Assembly: GCF_018977255.1 (NCBI RefSeq)
Contig: NW_024704742.1
Coordinates: 31,746,001-31,810,000, forward strand
Source: Callorhinchus milii
Lineage: Eukaryota
Reading direction: 5' to 3'
DNA length: 64,000 bases
The stretch's first letter is position 1; each line of letters starts with the position of its first letter. The notes under the pieces were generated by a model, which was given only the letters and a program-made list of their open reading frames with translations, was not told the origin of the DNA and ran no database searches. Below, piece by piece: positions 1,082 through 53,902 of this stretch. A program made the position numbers and the translations under genes.

Positions 1082-28483
<27,402 letters not shown>

Positions 28484-36907: not shown

Positions 36908-38632
36908 ATAGAAATATAGAAACAGGAGTAGGCCATTCAGCCCCACGACTCTGTTCTGCCATTCTATAAGATCATGGCTGATCTGTACCTTAAGTCTAAT
37001 TATATGCTCTTGCCCCATATCCCTTAATATTCTGACCTAACAAATAGCCATCCAGCTCAGTCTTGAAGATGTGAATGGATTCAGCATCCACAGCCTTTGG
37101 GATTAGAGAGTTCCAGATTTCCATTACCCTTTGGGTGAAAAACTACCTCCTGATTTCACTCCTAAATGGCCCAGCTCTAATTTTAAGATTATGCCTCCTT
37201 GTTCTGGATTCCCCACCAGACGAAATAGTTTCTCTGTATCTACCCTATCAAATCCCCTTATTGTTTTAAAAACTTCAATCAGATCATCCCTCAACCCTCT
37301 AAACTCAAGGGAATAGAGATCAAGTTTATGCAACCTGTCCTCATAATTTACCCTTTTAGCCCTGGTGTAATTCTGGTGAATCTGCGTTGAGGCCCTTCCA
37401 GAGCCAATATATCCTCCCTGAAGTATGGTACCCAAAACTGAACGCAGTACTCCAGATGGCGTCTGCCCAAGGCTCTATATAGTTGAAGCATAATTTCCTC
37501 TCCTTTATATTTCAGCCTCCTCGAGATAAAGACCAGCATCCCATTAGCCTTATTTTTTTCAACTTTTTGTACCTATGAGCTTGTTTTTAGGGATTTGCGT
37601 CCGTGAACACCCTTATCCCTTTGCTCCTCCACAGTTCTTAGTTTCTCAGCATTTAGAAAATATTCTGTTTTGCTATTCTTGGATCCATAGTGGATGACCT
37701 CATACTTCCCCACATTGAATTCCATCTGCCACAGTTTTGCCCACTCACTTAATCTATCCAAGTTCCTTTGTAACTTCCTGCTCCCATCTACACAATTTAC
37801 TGTGCCTCCTAACTTTGTGTCATCTGCAAATTTGGATGTAAAACTCACTATTCCTTCATCCAAGACATTTAATTATATATTCACTCTCGCCCCCTCTCAC
37901 TCGACTCCACTGGCTTCCTATCCTTCAGAGGATCCAGTTCAAGATCCTGGTCCTCACATACAAAGTCCTCCATGGCCTCGCCCCACCCTACCTCTGCGAC
38001 CTCCTAACCCCCTAACCCCCGCCTGTTCCCTCTACTCAGCCGACTCTGGCCTGCTTCATGTCCCCCGACCCACCCGCCCCACCATTGGTGAGATAGCCTT
38101 CAGCCACTCTGACCCCCAATCTCTGGAATTTCATCTCCCAGTCAATCCACCTCACCCCCTCCTTAGCCTCCTTCAAGTCCCGCCTCAAGACCCTCCTCTT
38201 CGACCATGCCATCGGCCACCCCCCTTCCCCTCCCTTACCCCCTGAACCCCAGCTTGGGTCTGAAATGCTGTACTCTGTCCAGCGCCTTGGGACATCCTCC
38301 TGACGTGAAAGGCACTATACAAATGTAATCTTGTTGTTTGTATGGAGAAAAGCTGAAGCCCCAGTACAGATCCCTGGTAAACACCACTTGTCCCGTACTG
38401 CCAATCAGACAATGTTCCTTTTATCCCTACTCTCTGTTTCCTGCTTCCCAACCAAGTACCAAGCCACGTCGCAAGGTTATCTCCGATTCCATGCGCTTTT
38501 ATTTTTGCTAATAACCTCTTGCGTGGAACCTTATCAAATGCCTTTTGAAAGGTCATTTTGACAAAATCCATTGACACTCTCTTATCTACCATTTTAGTGA
38601 CCTCAAAAAATTCAATTAGATTAACACACGCT
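36908..38632 (-). mobile_element. CR1 LINE 3' portion (RT and C-terminus), split by an L2 insertion
   Basis: KAFDKVP, GVYQGSVLG, SKFADDTKLGG, LEYCVQFW, RRFTR, DLIEVFK across frameshifted ORFs; CR1 3' end near 36910. Confidence 0.9.
37880..38339 (+). mobile_element. L2 LINE 3' end inserted into the CR1
   Basis: CTCCACTGGCTTCC...GTTCAAGATCCTGGTCCTC...GGGACATCCTCCTGACGTGAAAGGCACTATACAAATGTAATC(TTG)n. Confidence 0.85.
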
Positions 38633-38774
38633 TTAACATCCAGCAACTGGAATCCACCTTGATTGTCTTGCAGAAAGGCAAGCAGCTACTGTTTAAACTC
38701 CGTACCCCCATCTGGTGGAAGGGATGTGTGCCCGAACTGCAGACAGGAAGATGGTTCTCACGCATTTCATGCGT

Positions 38775-41684: not shown

Positions 41685-42172
41685 AAATAATTTAGTCACT
41701 CTGTCCACCACTGTTTGTGGGACACTGCTGTGTGCAATTGTCTGCCGAGTTTCGATCACAAAATACACAGTCAATCCATTTTACAATATATTCTGTGAAG
41801 CGCTTTGAGATGTTTCAACGATGTGACAATAATAATGACAATAATCCTTGTATTTGATACAGTGCCTTATCACATTTTCTAGATGTCTCAAAGCACTTCA
41901 CAGAATATACTGTAAAGTGAATTGACTGTTATATTTTGTGGGCAAAACATGACAGCCAATTGCGTACAGCAGTGTCCCAATAATTTTGTAGGAATTATTA
42001 CCCCCGGTAAAGCAATCCGCCAATTGACTAACAACCCGGTTCCTACTGACTGCTAGGTGAACAAAGGTGTGTGGAGTAAGGAAACTTGCTCAACATTTCG
42101 TTCTGCCAGGAATTGAGCTCTGGGCTTCTGGCTTGCGGGGCAAGTGCTCTAATCACTGAGCTACAGGACTCC
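41685..42172. mobile_element. Tail-to-tail pair of family B SINEs (+ 3' fragment 41685-41828; - full copy 41829-42172)
   Basis: Shared body and tail sequences in opposite orientation. Confidence 0.8.
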
Positions 42173-44499: not shown

Positions 44500-44895
44500 C
44501 ATAATAATAATTCTTGCATTCCATTTAGCACCTTATCACATCGTCAAGATGTCTGAAATGCCATCACTGTGTTTTGTGACAACTGTGGCAGCTAATTTGC
44601 ATGTAGCAATGTCCCATATATAGCCAGGAAATGGATGACCAATTTTATTCAGGGGATTGTCAACCAGAACACTGGAAAACATTTCTTTCTCTTTTTGAAT
44701 AGTGCTATGGAATTTTTATCATCCACCTGAACAGGCAGATGGGAACGTCAGGTTAATGTCTCACCTGAAGCACACTCCCAGCATTGCACTGGAGTGTCTG
44801 CTTAGACTATATGAGTTCCAAGTCCCAAAGTGGGAACTGAACCCACAATCTCTGAATCAAAGGTGAAAGTGTTAACAACTGAGCCAGGCTGACAC
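44500..44895 (-). mobile_element. DeuSINE-like element (family A), near full length
   Basis: Tail, reverse Deu core, head ending CTGAGCCAGGCTGACAC. Confidence 0.75.
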
Positions 44896-45194
44896 ACAGC
44901 AAGATATGTAGGGTTCCCTCACAAAAACATCCACAACTAATTGAGTGACAGCATTTCACGTCATGTTAACTGACTTGAAGATATTCGACGCCTGGGATTA
45001 TTTAGTATAAAGGCTGTTTTGTTACCTGGTGATCAAGCCTCTAAAGCACCAATGTTTGCAATGCCACTGTGTCTTCTAATCCTTCATGTTGAGGAAGGAA
45101 TTCACATTGCAACCTGTACCAGTGGTCAGCATAACAAACAGCCTTTGTTGCTATCTAGTACCTGTCTGAGGAGTGAGGTGGAAAAATGGAGGAT

Positions 45195-45680
45195 GGAGTC
45201 CTCTAGTGCAGTGGTTAGAGCACTCACCTCACAAGCGAGAGGACCTGGGTTTGATTCCCGGGTGGGGCAAAACTTTAAGCAAGTTTCCTTACTCCACTTG
45301 CCATTGTTTACCCAGCAGTAAATAGGAACCCGGTTGTTAGTCTATTGGCAGATCATTTTCCGGGGATAATAATCCCTGCAAAAAAATATATAATAACTTA
45401 GTCACTCAATCCACAACTGTTTGTGGGACACTCCTGTCTGCAATTGGCTGCCGCATTTCGCCCACCAAATATGCAATCAATTCGCTTTACAGTATATTCT
45501 GTGAAGAGCTTTGAGACATCTCAACGATGCGATAAATAATAATAATCCTTACTTTTGATATAGTGCCTTATCACGTCTTTGAGATGTCTCAAAGCGCTTC
45601 ACAGAATATAATGTAAAGTAAAGTGACTGTATATTTTGTGGGTGAAATGCTATATCAAATGCAAGGATTATTATTATCAT
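45195..45680 (+). mobile_element. Family B SINE (long form) with an inverted SINE tail fragment (~45535-45650) inserted in its tail
   Basis: Head at 45195; tail broken at GATAA and resumed at GCTATATCAAATGCAAGG. Confidence 0.85.
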
Positions 45681-47297
45681 AATAACATTTTTCAATCCGG
45701 ACGATGGTTGAATGGCAAAGACATACTGCTGTAGTTACTACAGAAAGCAATAGTGTCATTGTGTACATTTCATTCTGAATGACGTTGCACCAATGATCAT
45801 ATAATAAGAATTATACTTTGTTGATAGTTTACATTGAGTAATTCTTTATGTAATACAATATTATACTTTATTCTGGTTTGCTGAATGGTTTGACAAATGT
45901 GCTTTTTTATAGATAAACTTAACCTGGACGCAACATCCTGCAGAGCTGCTTTTCTGTTGAAGACTTCTTTTCCTCTAACACCTAGAATAACTCAATATAT
46001 ATGCATATTATTCTTTCTGCACTATCCTATCACCTCAATCCATGACTGTCTGTGCGACACTGCTGTGCGTACTTTGCTGCTGCGTTTCGCTCACAAAATG
46101 CAGTCATTACACTTTACAGTGTGTCCTGTGAAGTGCTTTGAGACGTCTCGAAGATGTGATGAGGCACTATATCAAATGAAAGGATTATTACTATTCCAAT
46201 GCCCCCTACTTGCCAACCTGTCCAGCTCCTCTCCACATAAAAGTCTGCAATCAGTCTATCCCAGTGCCATGTTTATGTGAAGCAAGTTAGTGAAATTCAA
46301 GGCATGCCATTATTTTCCACTGTTGAGACCTCAATCTCATTCTTAATCTCTTTTACAATTATTTGTGTGTGGAATTTACACACAGCAGCAAGCATTGTGA
46401 TACCACGTTATAAATGCTTTCCTCAACTGTGGAATAAACCTTCACTATTCTACATTGTACAGTGTTCGGCTATTCCCATATCTCCACCACTCACCTTTTC
46501 CCAGTTCCTTCCCACAGATCACATTTCCTAAGCCTCAGCGATTATTGAAAATGTCAAATCCCATTCCTAACCAGATATAGGAAATCCAGCTGTGTCTTGA
46601 AGGGACATCTGAAAGTGATTAAAAGGTAATAAAATGAACAAGGGGGTTATAAAGTGTAAAATCAAAGCTTCGACGGATTGAAACCACTCCAGAGAATCCA
46701 TTATTTTACATGGTTTGTTGGGAACTTCATATGTTTTGCTCTGATTTGGCTGTTATTCAATCGCATACAGGAGTCCATGCTTGCCACCTCTCTTAATGTG
46801 TGACCATATCTACAATGACTGTAAAAATAATCAGTGAAAGAAATTACTGCTGATACAGCCAGTCTCGGTAAGAAACATTTCATTGCAGTTGAAGCACATG
46901 AGACAAACTCATCTGTGTTTCAAGTGAACAATGGTTGACCTCTCGCAAGCTATGATTTGATCACATGGACTTATGTTATGGTCGAATGTCATGATATCAA
47001 GAACACGTCCCATTCACTGGGGACCTCACATCTGGAGCACTGCATGCTGCCGCTGAAGCCCTCAGCCATGCTTTCATCACTTCAGGCATAGATTTTTCCA
47101 TTGCTCCCCTTTCCAGCCTCCACAGTTCTACTGTCCAGAAGCTTCAGCTGATCCAGAAACCTGCAGCACAGTTTTTCTCGCACACAAGCTGCCTAAAGAT
47201 TACTGTGCTGAGATTACTGTGCTGCCAACATTGTCATCTTCAGCTCAGTGGTTAAAGGTCAATACACAATTGACTAATCAAAGGTTTCCCCTCTATT

Positions 47298-47542
47298 GCG
47301 AAACCTTGGGCAAGTTTCCTTACTCCACACGCCTAATAATAATCCCTCCAAAAAACCAAAAACAATAATTAAATTGGTCATTTTCAATCTACGACTGTTT
47401 GTGGGACATTGCTGTGCGCAATTGGCTGCCGCGTTCGCCCACAAATATACAGTCAATTCACTTTACAGTGTGTTCTGTGAAGCGCTTTGGGACGTCCTCC
47501 TGACGTGAAAAGCGCTATATCAAATGCAAGGATTATTATTAT
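47298..47542 (+). mobile_element. Family B young SINE, 5'-truncated
   Basis: Near-identical reverse complement of 47569-47820. Confidence 0.9.
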
Positions 47543-47568
47543 AAGGATTATTAGGATTATTATTGTTT

Positions 47569-47890
47569 AATAATAATAATAATAATCCTTGCATTTGATA
47601 TAGCGCTTTTCACGTCGGGAGGACGTCCCAAAGCGCTTCACAGAACACACTGTAAAGTGAATTGACTGTATATTTGTGGGCGAAACGCGGCAGCCAATTG
47701 CGCACAGCAATGTCCCACAAACAGTCGTAGATTGAAAATGACCAATTTTTATTATTGTTTGGGGTTTTGGAGGGATTATTATTAGGCGTGTGGAGTAAGG
47801 AAACTTGCCCAAGGTTTCGCCCTGCCTGGAATTGAACTCAGATCTCTCGCTTGCAAAGCGAGTGCTCTAACCACTGAGCTACAGGACTCC
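47569..47890 (-). mobile_element. Family B young SINE, full length
   Basis: Intact A and B boxes, (ATT)n tail; nearly identical to 13535-13853. Confidence 0.9.
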
Positions 47891-48291
47891 ACAAATGAGT
47901 ATTTGGCCACACTATGTGTCACTTGAGCCTTTTTAATTTTCTTTTGTGAAGAAGACTTTTCTCTTTCGTTAGGTAACCCCCAAGCTTATAGGAGTAAGAC
48001 TCACTCAAACTGTCTTTTATTTATTTTGTCAAGACTTAGGTCATCATTTCTCTTCACTGGCGGCAACCAAAACTTGACAAGATTGGACCGAATTTCAGTC
48101 AACGCTGCATTCATTAATCCCCAGCCACAAAAAATTGAAAGGCAATGGAGCACATTTCAACATCAAAACCTTGTGCCTGAGCCAAGGCTGCTTCATCACT
48201 CTCCTCTTACCTCCACACCAGCCCACATCTTCACTTGTGTATGTTTCTGATCAACTTGTTCCATGCGCAAACGCCCTTTATAGTAAGATTA

Positions 48292-48656
48292 TTATAATAA
48301 TCCTTGCATTTGACATAGGGCCTTATCACATCATTGAGAAATCTCAAAGCATTTCATACAATATACTGTAAAATACATTGACTTTGTATTTGTGTGGGCG
48401 AAACTTGGTAGCCAATTCCAGCAGAGTCCCACAAACAGTCATGGATTGTGGGATCAAATTATTTTTTTTAGAACAGATTATTACCCTGGGAAAAGTAATC
48501 CACAAATCGATAAACAACCAGGTTTCTACTTACTGCTAGGTAAACAGAGGCATGCAAAGAAAGGAAATTTGCCTAAGGTTTCGCCCTGCCCGGGAATTTA
48601 ACCTGGGTCCTCTTGCTTGCGAGGCGAGTGCTCTCACCACTATGTTACAGGACTCC
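48292..48656 (-). mobile_element. Family B SINE (long form)
   Basis: Tail, body and tRNA-like head in order. Confidence 0.85.
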
Positions 48657-48888
48657 ACATCATAAGCTTGTGGAGCTGATTGAAATTCTCCTCTGTTATT
48701 GTACTGTTTTTGATTTCTGATGATCACAAAATCCAAACGCATGAGTGATAGATAGATCTTGGATGTAATGTTGTGTTTTATAAACTCTGGTATCAGTCCA
48801 CTTATTGTATCTTGCAGTGCCTAAACAGTAGAAGGGAGTTTGCATAGTGAATACAAATGCTACCTCAGGTATTAGAGTTAGTCTAAAG

Positions 48889-49060
48889 GCAAAATACTGC
48901 AGATCCTGGAAATCTGAAATAAAAATAGAAGTTGCTGGGAGCACTCAGCAGGTCAGGCAGGCAGAGAGAGGAGAGTGAGTTAACGTTCTGATGAAAGGTC
49001 ATCAACCTGAAACATTATCTCACTTTCCTCTCTCTCCATAGATGCTGCCTGACCTGCTCA
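48889..49060. mobile_element. Short palindromic Penelope-like non-autonomous element
   Basis: Inverted arms AGCAGGTCAGGCAG (48947-48960) / CTGCCTGACCTGCT (49045-49058) and 48964-48987 / 49011-49034; resembles recalled chondrichthyan Penelope-derived palindromes. Confidence 0.7.
48985..49019 (+). ncRNA. Degenerate minimal type-I hammerhead ribozyme motif
   Basis: CTGATGA (48988-48994), extra A, stem AGGT/ACCT with loop CATCA, GAAA (49009-49012), then C-A-T-T. Confidence 0.55.
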
Positions 49061-50229
49061 TGAGAATTAACCTTTTGCTCTGCTGTTCAAAAAAGAATAA
49101 AATATATGAACTTTCATGAAGAAAATGTTTTTAGGCCCACTTAGCCTATCCCTCAAACCCATCTTCGCAAATATGTCTAGCTAAGACTTGAACCCATTTA
49201 TGCTGTCTATTTAAATTGTCTTCCCACCTTTTATTATCCATTGTGTGGCAAGCTACTAATTTTCTTACCCCTAACATCCTATTTTTCAACCTGTCTCCTG
49301 GTATATGAACTCTCTGCCATAGAAAACAATTTACATTCACCAACTTTGTCAAAACCCCTTTATTATTGTCAAAATTTTCAATTGGGTCACTTTGAAGTCA
49401 TAACTTTCTTCAATTGGAGCTGACAAGAAAGTAGGAAAAGCAGCTTTCTGTAACATGAGTAGTGTGTAGCTGGGAGTAAGCAGAGCTGGGGAACAGTAAA
49501 TGGACTGTTCGACTATGTACCTGCTTCGTTTACTGTACACGGTTACAGTTGTTTAATGTTTTCATTTGGCATATGGATTTATTCTATAAAGGATCAAGAA
49601 CCACATCCGTGCTTGGTAGAGCCAATCTGTGTTGGAAAATAGTAATACTATCTGCCATTCTTGCTTTATATTGCTAACAGTCAAATATTAAACATCCGGA
49701 ATGTACAGCCAGCATCATTTAGGAGGTTTAACACCTGCAATTTACAAGGTAAAGTAATATCAGTTTTCAATGGCTTAATGGGCTGAAAAGGAACCCTTTG
49801 TCCTATTGGAAGCTACTGTACAATAATATTGTTACAATCGTAAACAATAATTTGTGAGTGTTTCAGCAATATAGAAATAACACCAGCAATAAACAACAGG
49901 TCCTAACACCTACTCTTCGAGCTTCACTGAAACAAGAAAACTGAGACCTCTTTCCTTTCAAGGCTTGAGAAAGGCTTCTACTGAGAGAAGTAAATTTCCT
50001 CCTTTCATATCAACTTTAGCTAAGTGCCGGGAGCTGGTGATTCCTGATTGTCTGACACAATTAAATGGTTAATTGTGAGAGCTGAGAGAAAAATAAACTT
50101 GAATCCTTAATAACTTTTGTAACATCTATAGTTCTATTGTACGATTTAAACATTTGGTTTAATTGCCATCACGTATTGTAACTAGAGGCAATGGACACCT
50201 TGTCTAGCCTGCTTCAGTTTTGGGACACG

Positions 50230-50595
50230 ATCCAAGCCTTTAAAGTCATGAGAAGCATAGATAAAGTAGATGTAAGCAGGCTATTTAACTTAGACCGTGA
50301 GAGCCGAACAAGAGGGCATAGGTTTCAAATTCATACTGCCTCAAGCAGGAGTGAAGCTTAGAAGTTTTTTCCCCACACAGAATGGTGGACATGTGCAGGA
50401 CAGGTTTCAAAGGTGGAGATATAGGCATTGAAGAATATTCGGGTGGGGTGGGGGCTTCAATTGATTGCCTTTGGGGTTCAAGGATTCTGTGCAGAGTTCT
50501 CTCCACGAGATCGAATGAAATTTAAGTAAGTTTTGCCTAATCCGTGGAAGGAGGAGACTTGATGGGCCAAATGACCCGTCCCATTCCATTCTTTC
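50230..50595 (+). mobile_element. Decayed CR1 3' fragment
   Basis: FKVM..IDKVD-like coding remnant and GATGGGCCAAATG 3' UTR motif. Confidence 0.55.
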
Positions 50596-50754
50596 TTATA
50601 CTGTTACCAACTTGGTTCATCAGAAACATATGGACTCTTTGAAGTTGGAATATCTTTGTCAGTGGATCTTGTCATGAACCTTGTAATAAGGGTATGAATC
50701 ATACATTGTAATGAACTCATCAAATATCTGACTCATATTTAAAAACATGATTTA

Positions 50755-51185
50755 ATAATGAATAATCCTTAGATTTGGTATAGAACCTTATCACGTCAGG
50801 AGGATATCTTAAAACACTTCACAGGATTCAATGTAAAGTGTAGGAATTGCATTTGGGAGCAAATAGTCAATTTGCGCACAGCAAATGTCCCACATACTGT
50901 GTGAAGTGAATGACTTATTGGGGGGATTGTTGGCTAGGAGACCGGGAGAACCTCTCTTCACCTTTCAAATAGTCGCTTGAGATTTTTGACATCCAGCTGA
51001 ACAGGCAGACGGGACTTCTTGTAAACATATCATCCAGAGGACGGCATCTCTGATAATGCAGCACACCTTCAGCCCTGCACTGGAGTGTCAGCATGGACTA
51101 GATGGGTTCCATCTCCCGTTGTGGGGCTTGAACCCACAGTCTTCTAACTCAGAGATGAGAGTGCTATCAACTAAGCCAAACTGAT
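50755..51185 (-). mobile_element. DeuSINE-like element (family A), full length
   Basis: Tail, reverse Deu core, tRNA-like head. Confidence 0.8.
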
Positions 51186-52029
51186 GTGAATTATAGTGTG
51201 TGCAATTTCTATTTGTATTTGAGAAATGGCAGCTGAGCTGTATGTTGCTACCTCCTCATTATTAGATCTCAGCTGCTCTTGTTATGTGTTCACTGTGCTC
51301 TAATTTCTCAACAAATTTCAAGGTAATATTCTCCTTTGATGTACCGGTACTATTCTGTGCTATTTTCAGCTGCAATGCTATATTTTTTTTGATTCATAAA
51401 TGTTAAAGTGTATTTTCCACCTTTTTTTTCTTCAACCTTTGAAGCAGTCGTTGAATGCCCTATATGATGAATTGTTTTCAGCTTCAGAACGGTTATCAAC
51501 TTTTTTAATGGAATTGAGCAGTTAAAGGGATTAAACAAACAAACAGAGCCTTGTTAAATCTGCTGTTTGGTATGGCGCCTTTGCTGTATACAATATATCA
51601 GTCTAGATATATGCAAGTTATAAAACGTAATTGAAGGGAATAAATTCTTCTCTAAGTGTTAGGAGATGTTGCCATCTCTTGAAGTCAAATTCCGTGATGT
51701 TGATTAGATAATTTATGTAGAATTACATAATAATCTTCATATTTTTGCATTTGACATAGCATCTAATCATGTCATTGAGACATCCTTTACATACTGTAAA
51801 GTGGAGTGACAGTTCATTTTGTGGGCAAATAAATAGAATGATTTGGCACCGCAAAAAGCCATTTGTCCCAACCAGTCAGCGCTGGTGTTTATACTCCACA
51901 CAGGCCTCCCCAACCCCCTCATGTTATCCTTTCTTATACCTCTCTGTTCCTTTCTCCCTTTTGTATTCATTTCATTTCTTCCTCATGTATACTGAAGAAC
52001 ATAAACTTAGGAAGGAAGGTTATTAACTA

Positions 52030-53902
52030 GGGAATTAATAGGAATTAAAGAAATAAGAGGGGCAAAGAGACTGTATGAGAAAAGATTAACGGATAACATA
52101 AAAGAGAACCCTAAGGTGTTTTATTAGCATATAAGGAATAAAAGGTTAGTCAAAGGTAGGGTGGGTCAATTTAGGGATCAAAGAGGAAATCTTCTTGTGG
52201 AGGCAGAGGGCATGGCTGCCATATTGAATGAGTACTTTGCATCTTAGTCTTCACAAAAGAAGAGGATGCAGCTAATGCCACAGTATTGGAGGAGAGGGTA
52301 GAGAAATTGGATAAGAATTAACTGAGAGGAGGTACTAAAAAGGTTGTTGGTCCGCAAGGTAGATAAGTCACCCGGTCCAAGCGGGATGCATCCTAGGTTA
52401 TTGAGAGAAGTAAGGATGGAAATAATAGAGGCTCTGGCCACAATCTTTCAATCATCCTTGGACACCGGGGTGGTGCCAGAAGACTGGAGGGTTGCAAATG
52501 TACAAAAAGGAGCAGAAGGATAAACCCGGGAACTACAGGCCAATCAGCCTAATGTCAGGAATGGGGAAACTTCTAGAGAGTATAATCCGGGACAAAATAA
52601 ATTTTCACTTAGAAAAATATGGGTTAATAAAGGGCAGCCAACACGGAGTTGTTAAAAGCAAATCATGTCTAACAAACCTGATAGAGTTTTTTGATGAAGT
52701 AACGGAGAGGGTGGATGAAGGTAGTGCAAGTAGTTTATATGGATTTCCAAAAGTGTTTGATAAAGTGCCAAATAAGATACTTGTAAGCAAAATAGAAGAC
52801 AACGGTATTAAAGAGACAGTGGCAGCATGGATACCGAACTGGCTAGGAGACAGAAAACAGAAAGTGGTGGTGATCGGTTGTTTTGCTGACTGGAAGGAAA
52901 TGTGCAATGGTGTTCACCCAGGGGTTGGTATTGGGACCACTGCTGTTTTTAATCTATATAAATGACATGGACTTGGCTTTGGGGAGTACAGTTAGATGAT
53001 ACTAAGCTAGGAAAAGAAGTAAACGGTGAGGATGATAGCAGCAGACTGCAAACGGACATAGACAGACTGGTAAAATGGGCAGACACGTGGCAGATGAAGT
53101 TTAACTTGGAGAAATGCAAAGTGATACATTTCACAAGGAAGACTGAGGAGAGGCAATATAAGGTAGATGGTAGAATCTTAAAGGGGGTGAAGGAACAGAA
53201 AGACCTGGGGGTTCATACAAGTAAATCTTTGAAGGTGGCAGAACAGGTAGATAAAGCTGTTAAAAAAGCATACAGGATACTAGGCTTTATAAATAGGGGC
53301 ATAGAATACAAAAGTCAAGAAGTTATGATGAACCTTTATAAAACACTGGTTAGGCCTCAGCTAGAGTACTGTGTTCAGTTCTGGGTTCCCACACTTTAGG
53401 AACGATGTCAAGGCATTGGAGAGGGTGCAAAGCAGATTTACCAGGATGGTACCAGGAATGAGGGACTTCAGTCATCAGAAACTAGGATTATTCTCCTTGG
53501 AGCAGAAAAAGTTACGAGGAGACTTAATAGAAGTTTTCAAAATTATGAGGGGATTCGATAAGGTGGACAAGGAGAAACTATCTCCACTGGCGGGTGGGTC
53601 GGTAACCCGAGGGCACCGATTTAAAATAGTTGTTAAAAGAAACCGAGGGGAGGTGAGAAGAAATGTTTTCACACAGCGAGTTTTTCGGATCTGCAATGCA
53701 TTGCCTGAAAAGGTGGTGGAAACCGATTCGATAACAACTTTTAAGAGAAAAGTAGATAATTATTTTGGGAAGACAAGTTTGCAGTGCTATGGAGAGAGCG
53801 CGGGGGAGTGGGATTGAATTGGATAGCTCTTTTAAACGAGCCGCAGAAACGTGATGGGCTGAATGTTCTCCTTCTGTGCTGCATAATTCTATGATTCTAT
53901 GA
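52030..53902 (+). mobile_element. CR1 LINE, 5'-truncated (~1.9 kb), frameshifted ORF2 RT domain with 3' tail
   Basis: KENPKVFY, PGNYRPISL, QHG..KSCLTNLIEFF, FDKVP, DDTKLG, LVRPQLEYCVQFW, RGDLIEVFK, TRGHRFK; tail (ATTCTATG)n near 53886-53901. Confidence 0.93.

Follow-up and report, generated by a model that had tools for sequence, protein, structure and literature searches.

A decayed inverted insertion in Callorhinchus milii, very probably of Penelope-like origin, from an abundant repeat family with a minimal hammerhead motif

Penelope-like elements (PLEs) carry minimal hammerhead ribozymes (min-HHRs), for which the published consensus is CUGANGAH / stem II / GAAA-N-palindrome-NUH, with C-G-U-U in 15 of the 56 published rows by our count (Cervera and De la Pena 2014, PMC4209133). 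The same source describes the G10.1-C11.1 pair as highly conserved and reports that the min-HHRs of PLE pseudo-LTRs (pLTRs) do not cleave as monomers and cleave weakly as dimers; most are solo motifs of truncated elements, and some form close pairs on opposite strands (PMC4209133). The features described for PLE insertions include an adjacent inverted and 5′-truncated copy, a one-sided tail of 30-40 bp, palindromes at the junctions and target-site duplications (TSDs) (Craig et al. 2021, PMC8557442; Arkhipova et al. 2013, PMC3846280). In PAc, the Poseidon element of Anolis carolinensis, which is predicted to dimerise, the hammerhead depends on the element’s protein for cleavage, insertion in vitro can proceed without that cleavage, and the start points of reverse transcription (RT) lie 111-118 nt inside an ORF with its start at stem II (Frangieh et al. 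2024, PMC11167929). Hammerhead retrozymes have been reported from one chondrichthyan (Li, Clavereau, Pollet, bioRxiv 10.64898/2026.07.22.740005).

The DNA analysed here, called the window below, is a 64,000-nucleotide stretch of C. milii contig NW_024704742.1, numbered from its first letter. It contains a 174-base hairpin at 48885-49058 that consists of an antisense arm and a sense arm with a GTT common to both. We consider it very probable that this hairpin is an old, 5′-truncated insertion of an endonuclease-bearing (EN+) PLE, in which two copies of the last 100-135 nt of the element stand head to head and which carries a PLE-type minimal type-I hammerhead. The initial annotation had placed the hairpin at 48889-49060; the ends given here are those defined by reads and contigs. 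The features of the locus are as follows.

48870..48884, no strand: target-site duplication, left copy, decayed, 14-15 bp, candidate; 10 of 15 positions identical to 49059-49073
48885..48987, minus strand: left arm, an antisense 5′-truncated copy of the element’s 3′ end with the full outer terminus; paired to 49011-49058
48885..48920, minus strand: candidate ‘tail’, the outer 32-36 nt, absent from a subset of copies (from the second loose-end clusters)
48985..48987, plus strand: GTT microhomology of 3 nt, common to both arms and serving as stem I’s 5′ strand in the hammerhead (from the mirror table)
48985..49058, plus strand: right arm, a sense copy that runs from the hammerhead 5′ edge (stem I 5′ strand) to 62 nt short of the family 3′ terminus
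48988..48995, plus strand: core C3-A9 (CUGAUGA) and the extra nucleotide before stem II (read from the sequence)
48996..49008, plus strand: stem II, 4 bp with a 5-nt loop in this copy, 5 bp with a 3-nt loop when the family letter is used
49009..49016, plus strand: G12-A15.1, 15.2, 16.2, U16.1 and H17; an ACGU palindrome in the family, broken here at 49014
49017..49019, plus strand: 3′ strand of stem I; in this copy 49018 gives a U-U mismatch at its centre
49059..49073, no strand: target-site duplication, right copy, decayed, candidate (from the mismatch-tolerant search)

The outer arms (48947-48960 and 49045-49058) pair at 14 of 14 positions, exactly as annotated before, and the inner arms (48963-48987 and 49011-49035) form 22 of 25 Watson-Crick pairs, a range within which the 21 of 24 counted previously falls. 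The arms are offset by 7 nt. The palindrome is asymmetric, its left arm exceeding its right arm by 62 nt. The distance from the hammerhead to the end of the element is 133 nt in this insert. Neither arm ends at the predicted cut site, which lies within the right arm and whose mirror is passed by the left arm, stopping 3-6 nt beyond. A left arm ending at the cut site was considered and is ruled out by this extension. The longer (TC)n at 49028 is a minority allele, absent from 62-67% of the family depth, and the left arm has an indel.

A search for exact TSDs around the insert returned nothing beyond 4-mers. The mismatch-tolerant search gave as its best register 48871-48884 against 49060-49073, which adjoins both read-defined ends of the insert and is identical at 10 of 14 positions, three of the four mismatches being transitions. 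This register is equalled at 115 of 3000 random positions in a wide search and at 104 of 20000 in a narrow one (empirical p 0.005-0.04), which gives moderate support to a decayed direct repeat of 14-15 bp as the target duplication.

The insert sits among short interspersed elements (SINEs), and no exon or PLE domain was detected at 40-58 kb. Upstream, the exons of a PAPSS-like gene occupy 2779-28480 of the plus strand (APS kinase at 2.8 kb, a PUA-like domain at 14.5 kb and ATP-sulfurylase at 21.5, 27.5 and 28.4 kb), the exon at 28.4 kb reaching the end of the ATP-sulfurylase profile. One tRNA-derived SINE forms a dense cluster on both strands at 44500-51830 and recurs at 13780-13851 and 42098-42170; four tRNA-like heads in the window reach the Rfam gathering score. 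Two copies of this tRNA-headed SINE lie tail to tail at 47298-47820, forming a near-perfect palindrome of ~520 bp with an (ATT)n/(AAT)n centre and arm segments that are 97%, 89% and 97% complementary. The right copy retains its tRNA-like head (47817-47888, minus strand, 53.4 bits) and the left copy is headless. The arms of this palindrome are more alike than other local copies (~76-87%), which suggests fold-back duplication or conversion. A perfect 14-bp tandem duplication at 47197-47224, equal in length to the putative target duplication of the family under study, is possibly an insertion or repair footprint. Broken reverse-transcriptase remnants at 38188-38685 (minus strand) and 52429-53396 (plus strand) match RVT_1 (E values of 1e-6 and 1.4e-8, respectively), are unconnected to the insert and, judging by their motifs, are presumably CR1-like.

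The centre of the hairpin reads as first annotated: GTT (48985-87), CTGATGA (48988-94), an AGGT/ACCT stem around a 5-nt loop, GAAA (49009-12), C-A-T-T and ATC (49017-19), with A48995 as the extra nucleotide that separates position 9 from position 10.1. The core elements CUGANGA and GAAA-N-N-U-H are thus present and all invariant core nucleotides are intact; the predicted cut site lies between 49016 and 49017. Stem II opens with A48996-U49008, not with the usual G10.1-C11.1, and neither site has a variant row in the family contigs. Two checks had been suggested in the initial annotation, one with Rfam hammerhead models and the other with a minimal-HHR descriptor. The Rfam search returned no hammerhead family at any threshold tried; Rfam hammerhead models may miss minimal forms. 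The published RNAmotif min-HHR descriptor (PMC4209133 supplement), which we coded with stems I and II of 3-7 bp each, has no strict match in the 64-kb window, and this copy fails it. When one mismatch in stem I is allowed, the sole match in the window is 48988; 300 dinucleotide shuffles of the window gave one strict and seven relaxed matches. Five other loose CTGAnGA..GAAA matches in the window fail the min-HHR descriptor.

To place this copy within its family, contigs of four public runs (X1, X3, X8 and X9, of 24 runs listed) were aligned to 48760-49200 at 80% likeness, which yielded 4533, 5398, 193 and 1448 contigs, respectively. Runs X1 and X3 come from one study and may include the source of the window; X9 is RNA by guess. 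As X8 looks base-converted (C>T of 88-100% at four sites), it was discounted for C/T and G/A sites. The summed depth, which is not a copy number, is 5.7-10.9 in the flanks in X1 and X3 and 5,500-298,000 in most inner bins, with maxima of 183,000 and 298,000. This contrast marks a very abundant, high-copy repeat with sharp ends at 48885 and 49058. The family contigs are fixed at the 3′ side, with the sharp end at 48885, and truncated at the 5′ side: the depth in X1, ~180,000 at the 3′ end, has dropped to ~5,500 by the time the core is reached, a gradient that private mismatches may steepen and that, like the tail cluster, may partly reflect clipping of the alignments.

The ends of the contigs’ similarity to the insert describe the family further, here for the loose-end results listed (24 of 501). 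Before 48885, where the depth steps up, unrelated flanks are found in 336 contigs of X1, 401 of X3 and 113 of X9 among those listed, with an agreement of ~0.41. Second clusters of ends, again among those listed, stand before 48917 (92 in X1, 103 in X3) and before 48921 (67 in X1, 19 in X9) with an agreement of 0.38-0.43; these tail candidates lie 32-36 nt inside the terminus and show no depth step, and clipping at the variable site 48920 may contribute to them. Before 48985, the listed loose ends comprise 94 (X1), 96 (X3) and 30 (X9) contigs with an agreement of 0.35-0.40. This agreement is no higher than that of the true flank, which suggests that many copies start at the hammerhead or immediately before it; the listed consensus before the GTT ends in CA in three runs. 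In the same listed results, a mirror image of the left arm at ~48916-48945 appears in the consensus behind 49058 (agreement 0.67-0.77; 48, 52 and 15 contigs), and one of the right arm, as far as helix III, in the consensus behind 48960. The mirroring of opposite arms indicates that the same end piece was copied into both. Single contigs do span the centre and the outer junctions, with just 26-28 letters on their shorter side, below the 31 letters that the alignment rule requires.

The family letters restore the motif. The initial annotation had deduced from the left arm that two motif positions were decayed in this copy, and both deduced ancestral letters are the family majority: 49018 is A in 98, 98, 100 and 98% of the summed depth of the four runs, and 49014 is G in 64, 66 and 68% of the depth of three runs and in 31% of that of X8. 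The neighbouring 49013 shows the mirror CpG decay, with C>T in 9-15%. The count of two was too low, as 49004 is a third such position, with G in 59, 58, 48 (X8) and 67% of the depth; a family G at this position gives a stem II of 5 bp with a 3-nt loop. The ACGT palindromic stem III and GTT/AAC stem I proposed at the outset are borne out by these letters, which give eight of eight stem pairs, in comparison with six of eight in this copy, and a self-complementary ACGU at 15.1-16.1. The palindrome needed for dimer formation (15.2-16.2) is therefore in the family majority and broken in this copy. The family form passes the strict descriptor with all three letters, and also with the letter at 49018 alone.

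The sole catalytic-core variant at or above 5% is at N7 (48992, T>C in 23-68%); there is none at C3-A6, G8, A9, G12-A15.1 and U16.1, a conservation that is over-estimated because strongly diverged copies do not align. The stem variants seen, which are per-site letters only, are all one-sided (49004, and 49017 with A>G in 3-11%), with no compensatory change. In a collection scan with an 18-mer, 5 viral and 120 metagenome loci were found, and all 125 were rejected as chance matches, the best alignment being 25 nt. Longer family patterns gave no match in viral contigs, prokaryote genomes and plasmids.

We assign the family to PLEs because of the anatomy of the insertion; an ORF is not the basis of this assignment. 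The description ‘palindromic Penelope-like element’ given initially holds in so far as the insertion pattern is PLE-like, and does not hold for a special palindromic element, since the usual inverted partner copy is the better explanation of the palindrome. Were the palindrome itself the mobile unit, as a non-autonomous MITE-like or retrozyme-like PLE derivative, its centre would be fixed. Some other contigs do cross the centre, at the cost of 6-16 differing letters and 6-11 gaps (records 5 and 7 of X1, 15 of X3, and 29, 31 and 32 of X9), but the depth at 48970-48984 is 170 in X1 and 337 in X3, against ~180,000-298,000 at the 3′ end, and the joints into 48985 come from differing points of the left arm (48924, 48927 and 48932, 1-2 contigs each, among the 15 of 77 joints listed). 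The arms are, furthermore, unequal, and the locus has no tandem array of the kind required in animal retrozymes (bioRxiv 10.64898/2026.07.22.740005). A mobile palindrome is thus improbable. Identity with a retrozyme was rejected outright, as no tandem array with hammerhead units is present at 44-54 kb and BLAST of the insert against the 64-kb window detected no second copy.

Still less probable is a repeat of another class with a hammerhead-like centre (a SINE tail, a LINE end or a DNA-transposon MITE) or a hammerhead retroposon unrelated to PLEs. Such a reading could draw on the missing Rfam hammerhead match, on the A-U in place of G10.1-C11.1 and on the lack of a linked PLE ORF among the ORFs scanned: GIY-YIG had no match among the 68, 135 and 110 ORFs scanned in the window, a scan that left out the minus-strand ORFs of 45-89 aa at 22-40 kb and 58-64 kb (113 of 358). 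The last point is expected of a truncated PLE copy. Against another class stand (i) the convergence of the family letters on a descriptor-perfect motif and, in addition, on a helix III palindrome that the descriptor does not ask for, (ii) the insert itself, in which no tRNA head, poly(A) tail or simple-repeat tail was found, and (iii) the unequal head-to-head arms and the candidate TSD of 14-15 bp, which misfit terminal inverted repeats.

We return to the truncated PLE copy, and to what can be expected of its ribozyme. By analogy with known min-HHRs, the family hammerhead would presumably have to dimerise through its ACGU palindrome in order to work. With family letters, the hammerhead fold is predicted at −4.3 kcal/mol, against −7.3 kcal/mol for the monomer minimum free energy (MFE), a gap of 3.0; for the dimer, the corresponding fold stands at −6.5 kcal/mol and the MFE at −19.3 kcal/mol, 12.8 lower. 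These modelled values fit, and do not prove, a weak and assisted ribozyme. In this copy, the region 48860-49090 folds at −83.3 kcal/mol (z −4.7, as stable in 0 of 200 shuffles), and the dimeric fold is less stable than the MFE by 30 kcal/mol. In context, the pairing probability of stem I is ~0 and that of stem II 0.006; family letters do not rescue stem I in a transcript that spans the fold-back, since its 3′ strand, like helix III, is taken up by pairing with the left arm. With stem I and the ACGU palindrome broken and the core hidden by the fold-back, this copy is very probably dead. The earlier judgement ‘probably inactive’ is therefore supported, and concealment of the core by the fold-back is a reason that it had not considered. 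According to the folding model, the inverted partner would have silenced this copy from the start. A rival hairpin at 48989-49004 (UGAUGA/UCAUCA with an AAGG loop) competes with stem II; its pair probability, 0.99 for this copy in its context, is lower once family letters are placed in the fold-back (0.57) and lowest in the family right arm alone (0.05).

That this copy serves the host as an active ribozyme or as a small-RNA hairpin precursor is scarcely credible, for although the hairpin is stable and its invariant core nucleotides are intact, its stems I, II and III are broken by three private changes, its hammerhead folds are as disfavoured as just described, it lies ~20 kb past the last PAPSS-like coding exon in a region with no exon detected at 40-58 kb, and its matches to Rfam miRNA models are generic hairpin scores far under gathering (best 26.7 against 90 bits).

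Beyond the family membership, ends, letters, descriptor fit and decay observed above, we infer a possible route of insertion for the truncated PLE copy. The element’s RT/GIY-YIG protein, supplied in trans, would nick both strands ~14-15 nt apart, and uncleaved element RNA would be copied from both nicks. The first cDNA would start at the full 3′ terminus and stop at the helix III palindrome, and the second would start 62 nt inside and run to the 5′ edge of the hammerhead. The 3′ ends of the two cDNAs (GTT and AAC) would then anneal, to be followed by fill-in. Later decay at two CpG sites (49004 and 49014) and a transversion (49018) would have broken stem II, helix III and stem I. Such twin-priming from two nicks would explain why the copies stand head to head and why their ends are unequal, as well as the putative duplication, and we give it about an even chance of being right. 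That the right arm ends at a non-standard place counts against the reading as a PLE insertion.

A somewhat less probable route, which we nevertheless take seriously, is a template switch or a self-primed hairpin that was trimmed unevenly. Self-priming on an antisense template was proposed by Arkhipova et al. (2013, PMC3846280), and uneven resolution of a hairpin intermediate (PMC8557442) is another form that this route could take. Plain snap-back of the right-arm cDNA is insufficient, because the 62 extra nucleotides of the left arm would not be templated. A later rearrangement is an unlikely source of the inverted pair.

Whichever route was taken, the hammerhead might shape insertions by its fold or position and not by cutting: RT would stop at the 5′ edge of stem I, and GTT/AAC would supply the microhomology for joining. 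We put this forward tentatively and hold it to be doubtful. It could come about in either of two ways, with a template RNA that begins at stem I, at a transcription start or a splice acceptor, or with a folded motif that blocks RT.

This copy is very probably a dead stub of an element of a described kind and in itself matters little. The family is of some value, as it is very abundant and its inverted junctions record PLE insertion, the mechanism of which is still unsettled. If the hammerhead does act through its position, the role of PLE hammerheads and the origin of inverted pLTRs would be testable by junction statistics alone, given the abundance of the family. Both the hammerhead and the insertion pattern are of already described PLE kinds, to which the family adds a member. 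The published literature searched, a scope that excluded Repbase, Dfam and Luense et al. (RNA Biol), gave no instance of the family’s hammerhead motif; Luense et al. reportedly describe small PLE hammerhead variants that cleave as dimers and may list this family. Text searches for the motif in papers and in one text file of the PMC8557442 supplement gave nothing relevant.

In comparison with the PLE min-HHRs of Cervera and De la Pena (2014, PMC4209133), the motif in its family form shares CUGANGA with an extra nucleotide, a short stem I, a stem II of 5 bp, GAAA-C-G-U-H without a helix III loop, a palindromic 15.1-16.1 and a GUU site. Unlike in most of them, stem II of the insert opens with A-U, as it does in at least 3 of the 56 published rows; the published 56-row alignment has no row from a cartilaginous fish, and this copy is mutated at three stem positions (PMC4209133).

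The insert resembles the units of EN+ PLEs (Craig et al. 2021, PMC8557442; Arkhipova et al. 2013, PMC3846280) in its head-to-head copies, junction palindrome, candidate TSD, 5′ truncation and unequal outer ends. In contrast to these units, it has no ORF between the arms, the asymmetry of its ends is 62 nt instead of 30-40, and its candidate TSD of 14-15 bp is longer than the 8-10 bp of A. vaga (PMC8557442, PMC3846280). With animal non-LTR retrozymes (Li, Clavereau, Pollet, bioRxiv 10.64898/2026.07.22.740005), the insert has in common that it is a non-coding, hammerhead-bearing PLE derivative; in retrozymes, however, the units form tandem arrays head to tail and each has its own hammerhead, whereas the insert comprises a single pair, arranged head to head, in which one motif is complete.

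The comparison with PAc (Frangieh et al. 2024, PMC11167929) bears on the process of insertion. The ORF of PAc starts at stem II, whereas here, as judged by eye, the frame opened by the ATG of the core closes after 19 codons when the family letters are read. As in PAc, the hammerhead lies ~110-150 nt upstream of the 3′ ends of insertions, and two 3′ end positions, nicking and extension of both strands and an uncleaved RNA template are features of PAc that the route proposed for the insert would share (PMC11167929). That neither arm ends at the cut site agrees with the insertion of PLEs in vitro, which uses uncleaved RNA (PMC11167929).
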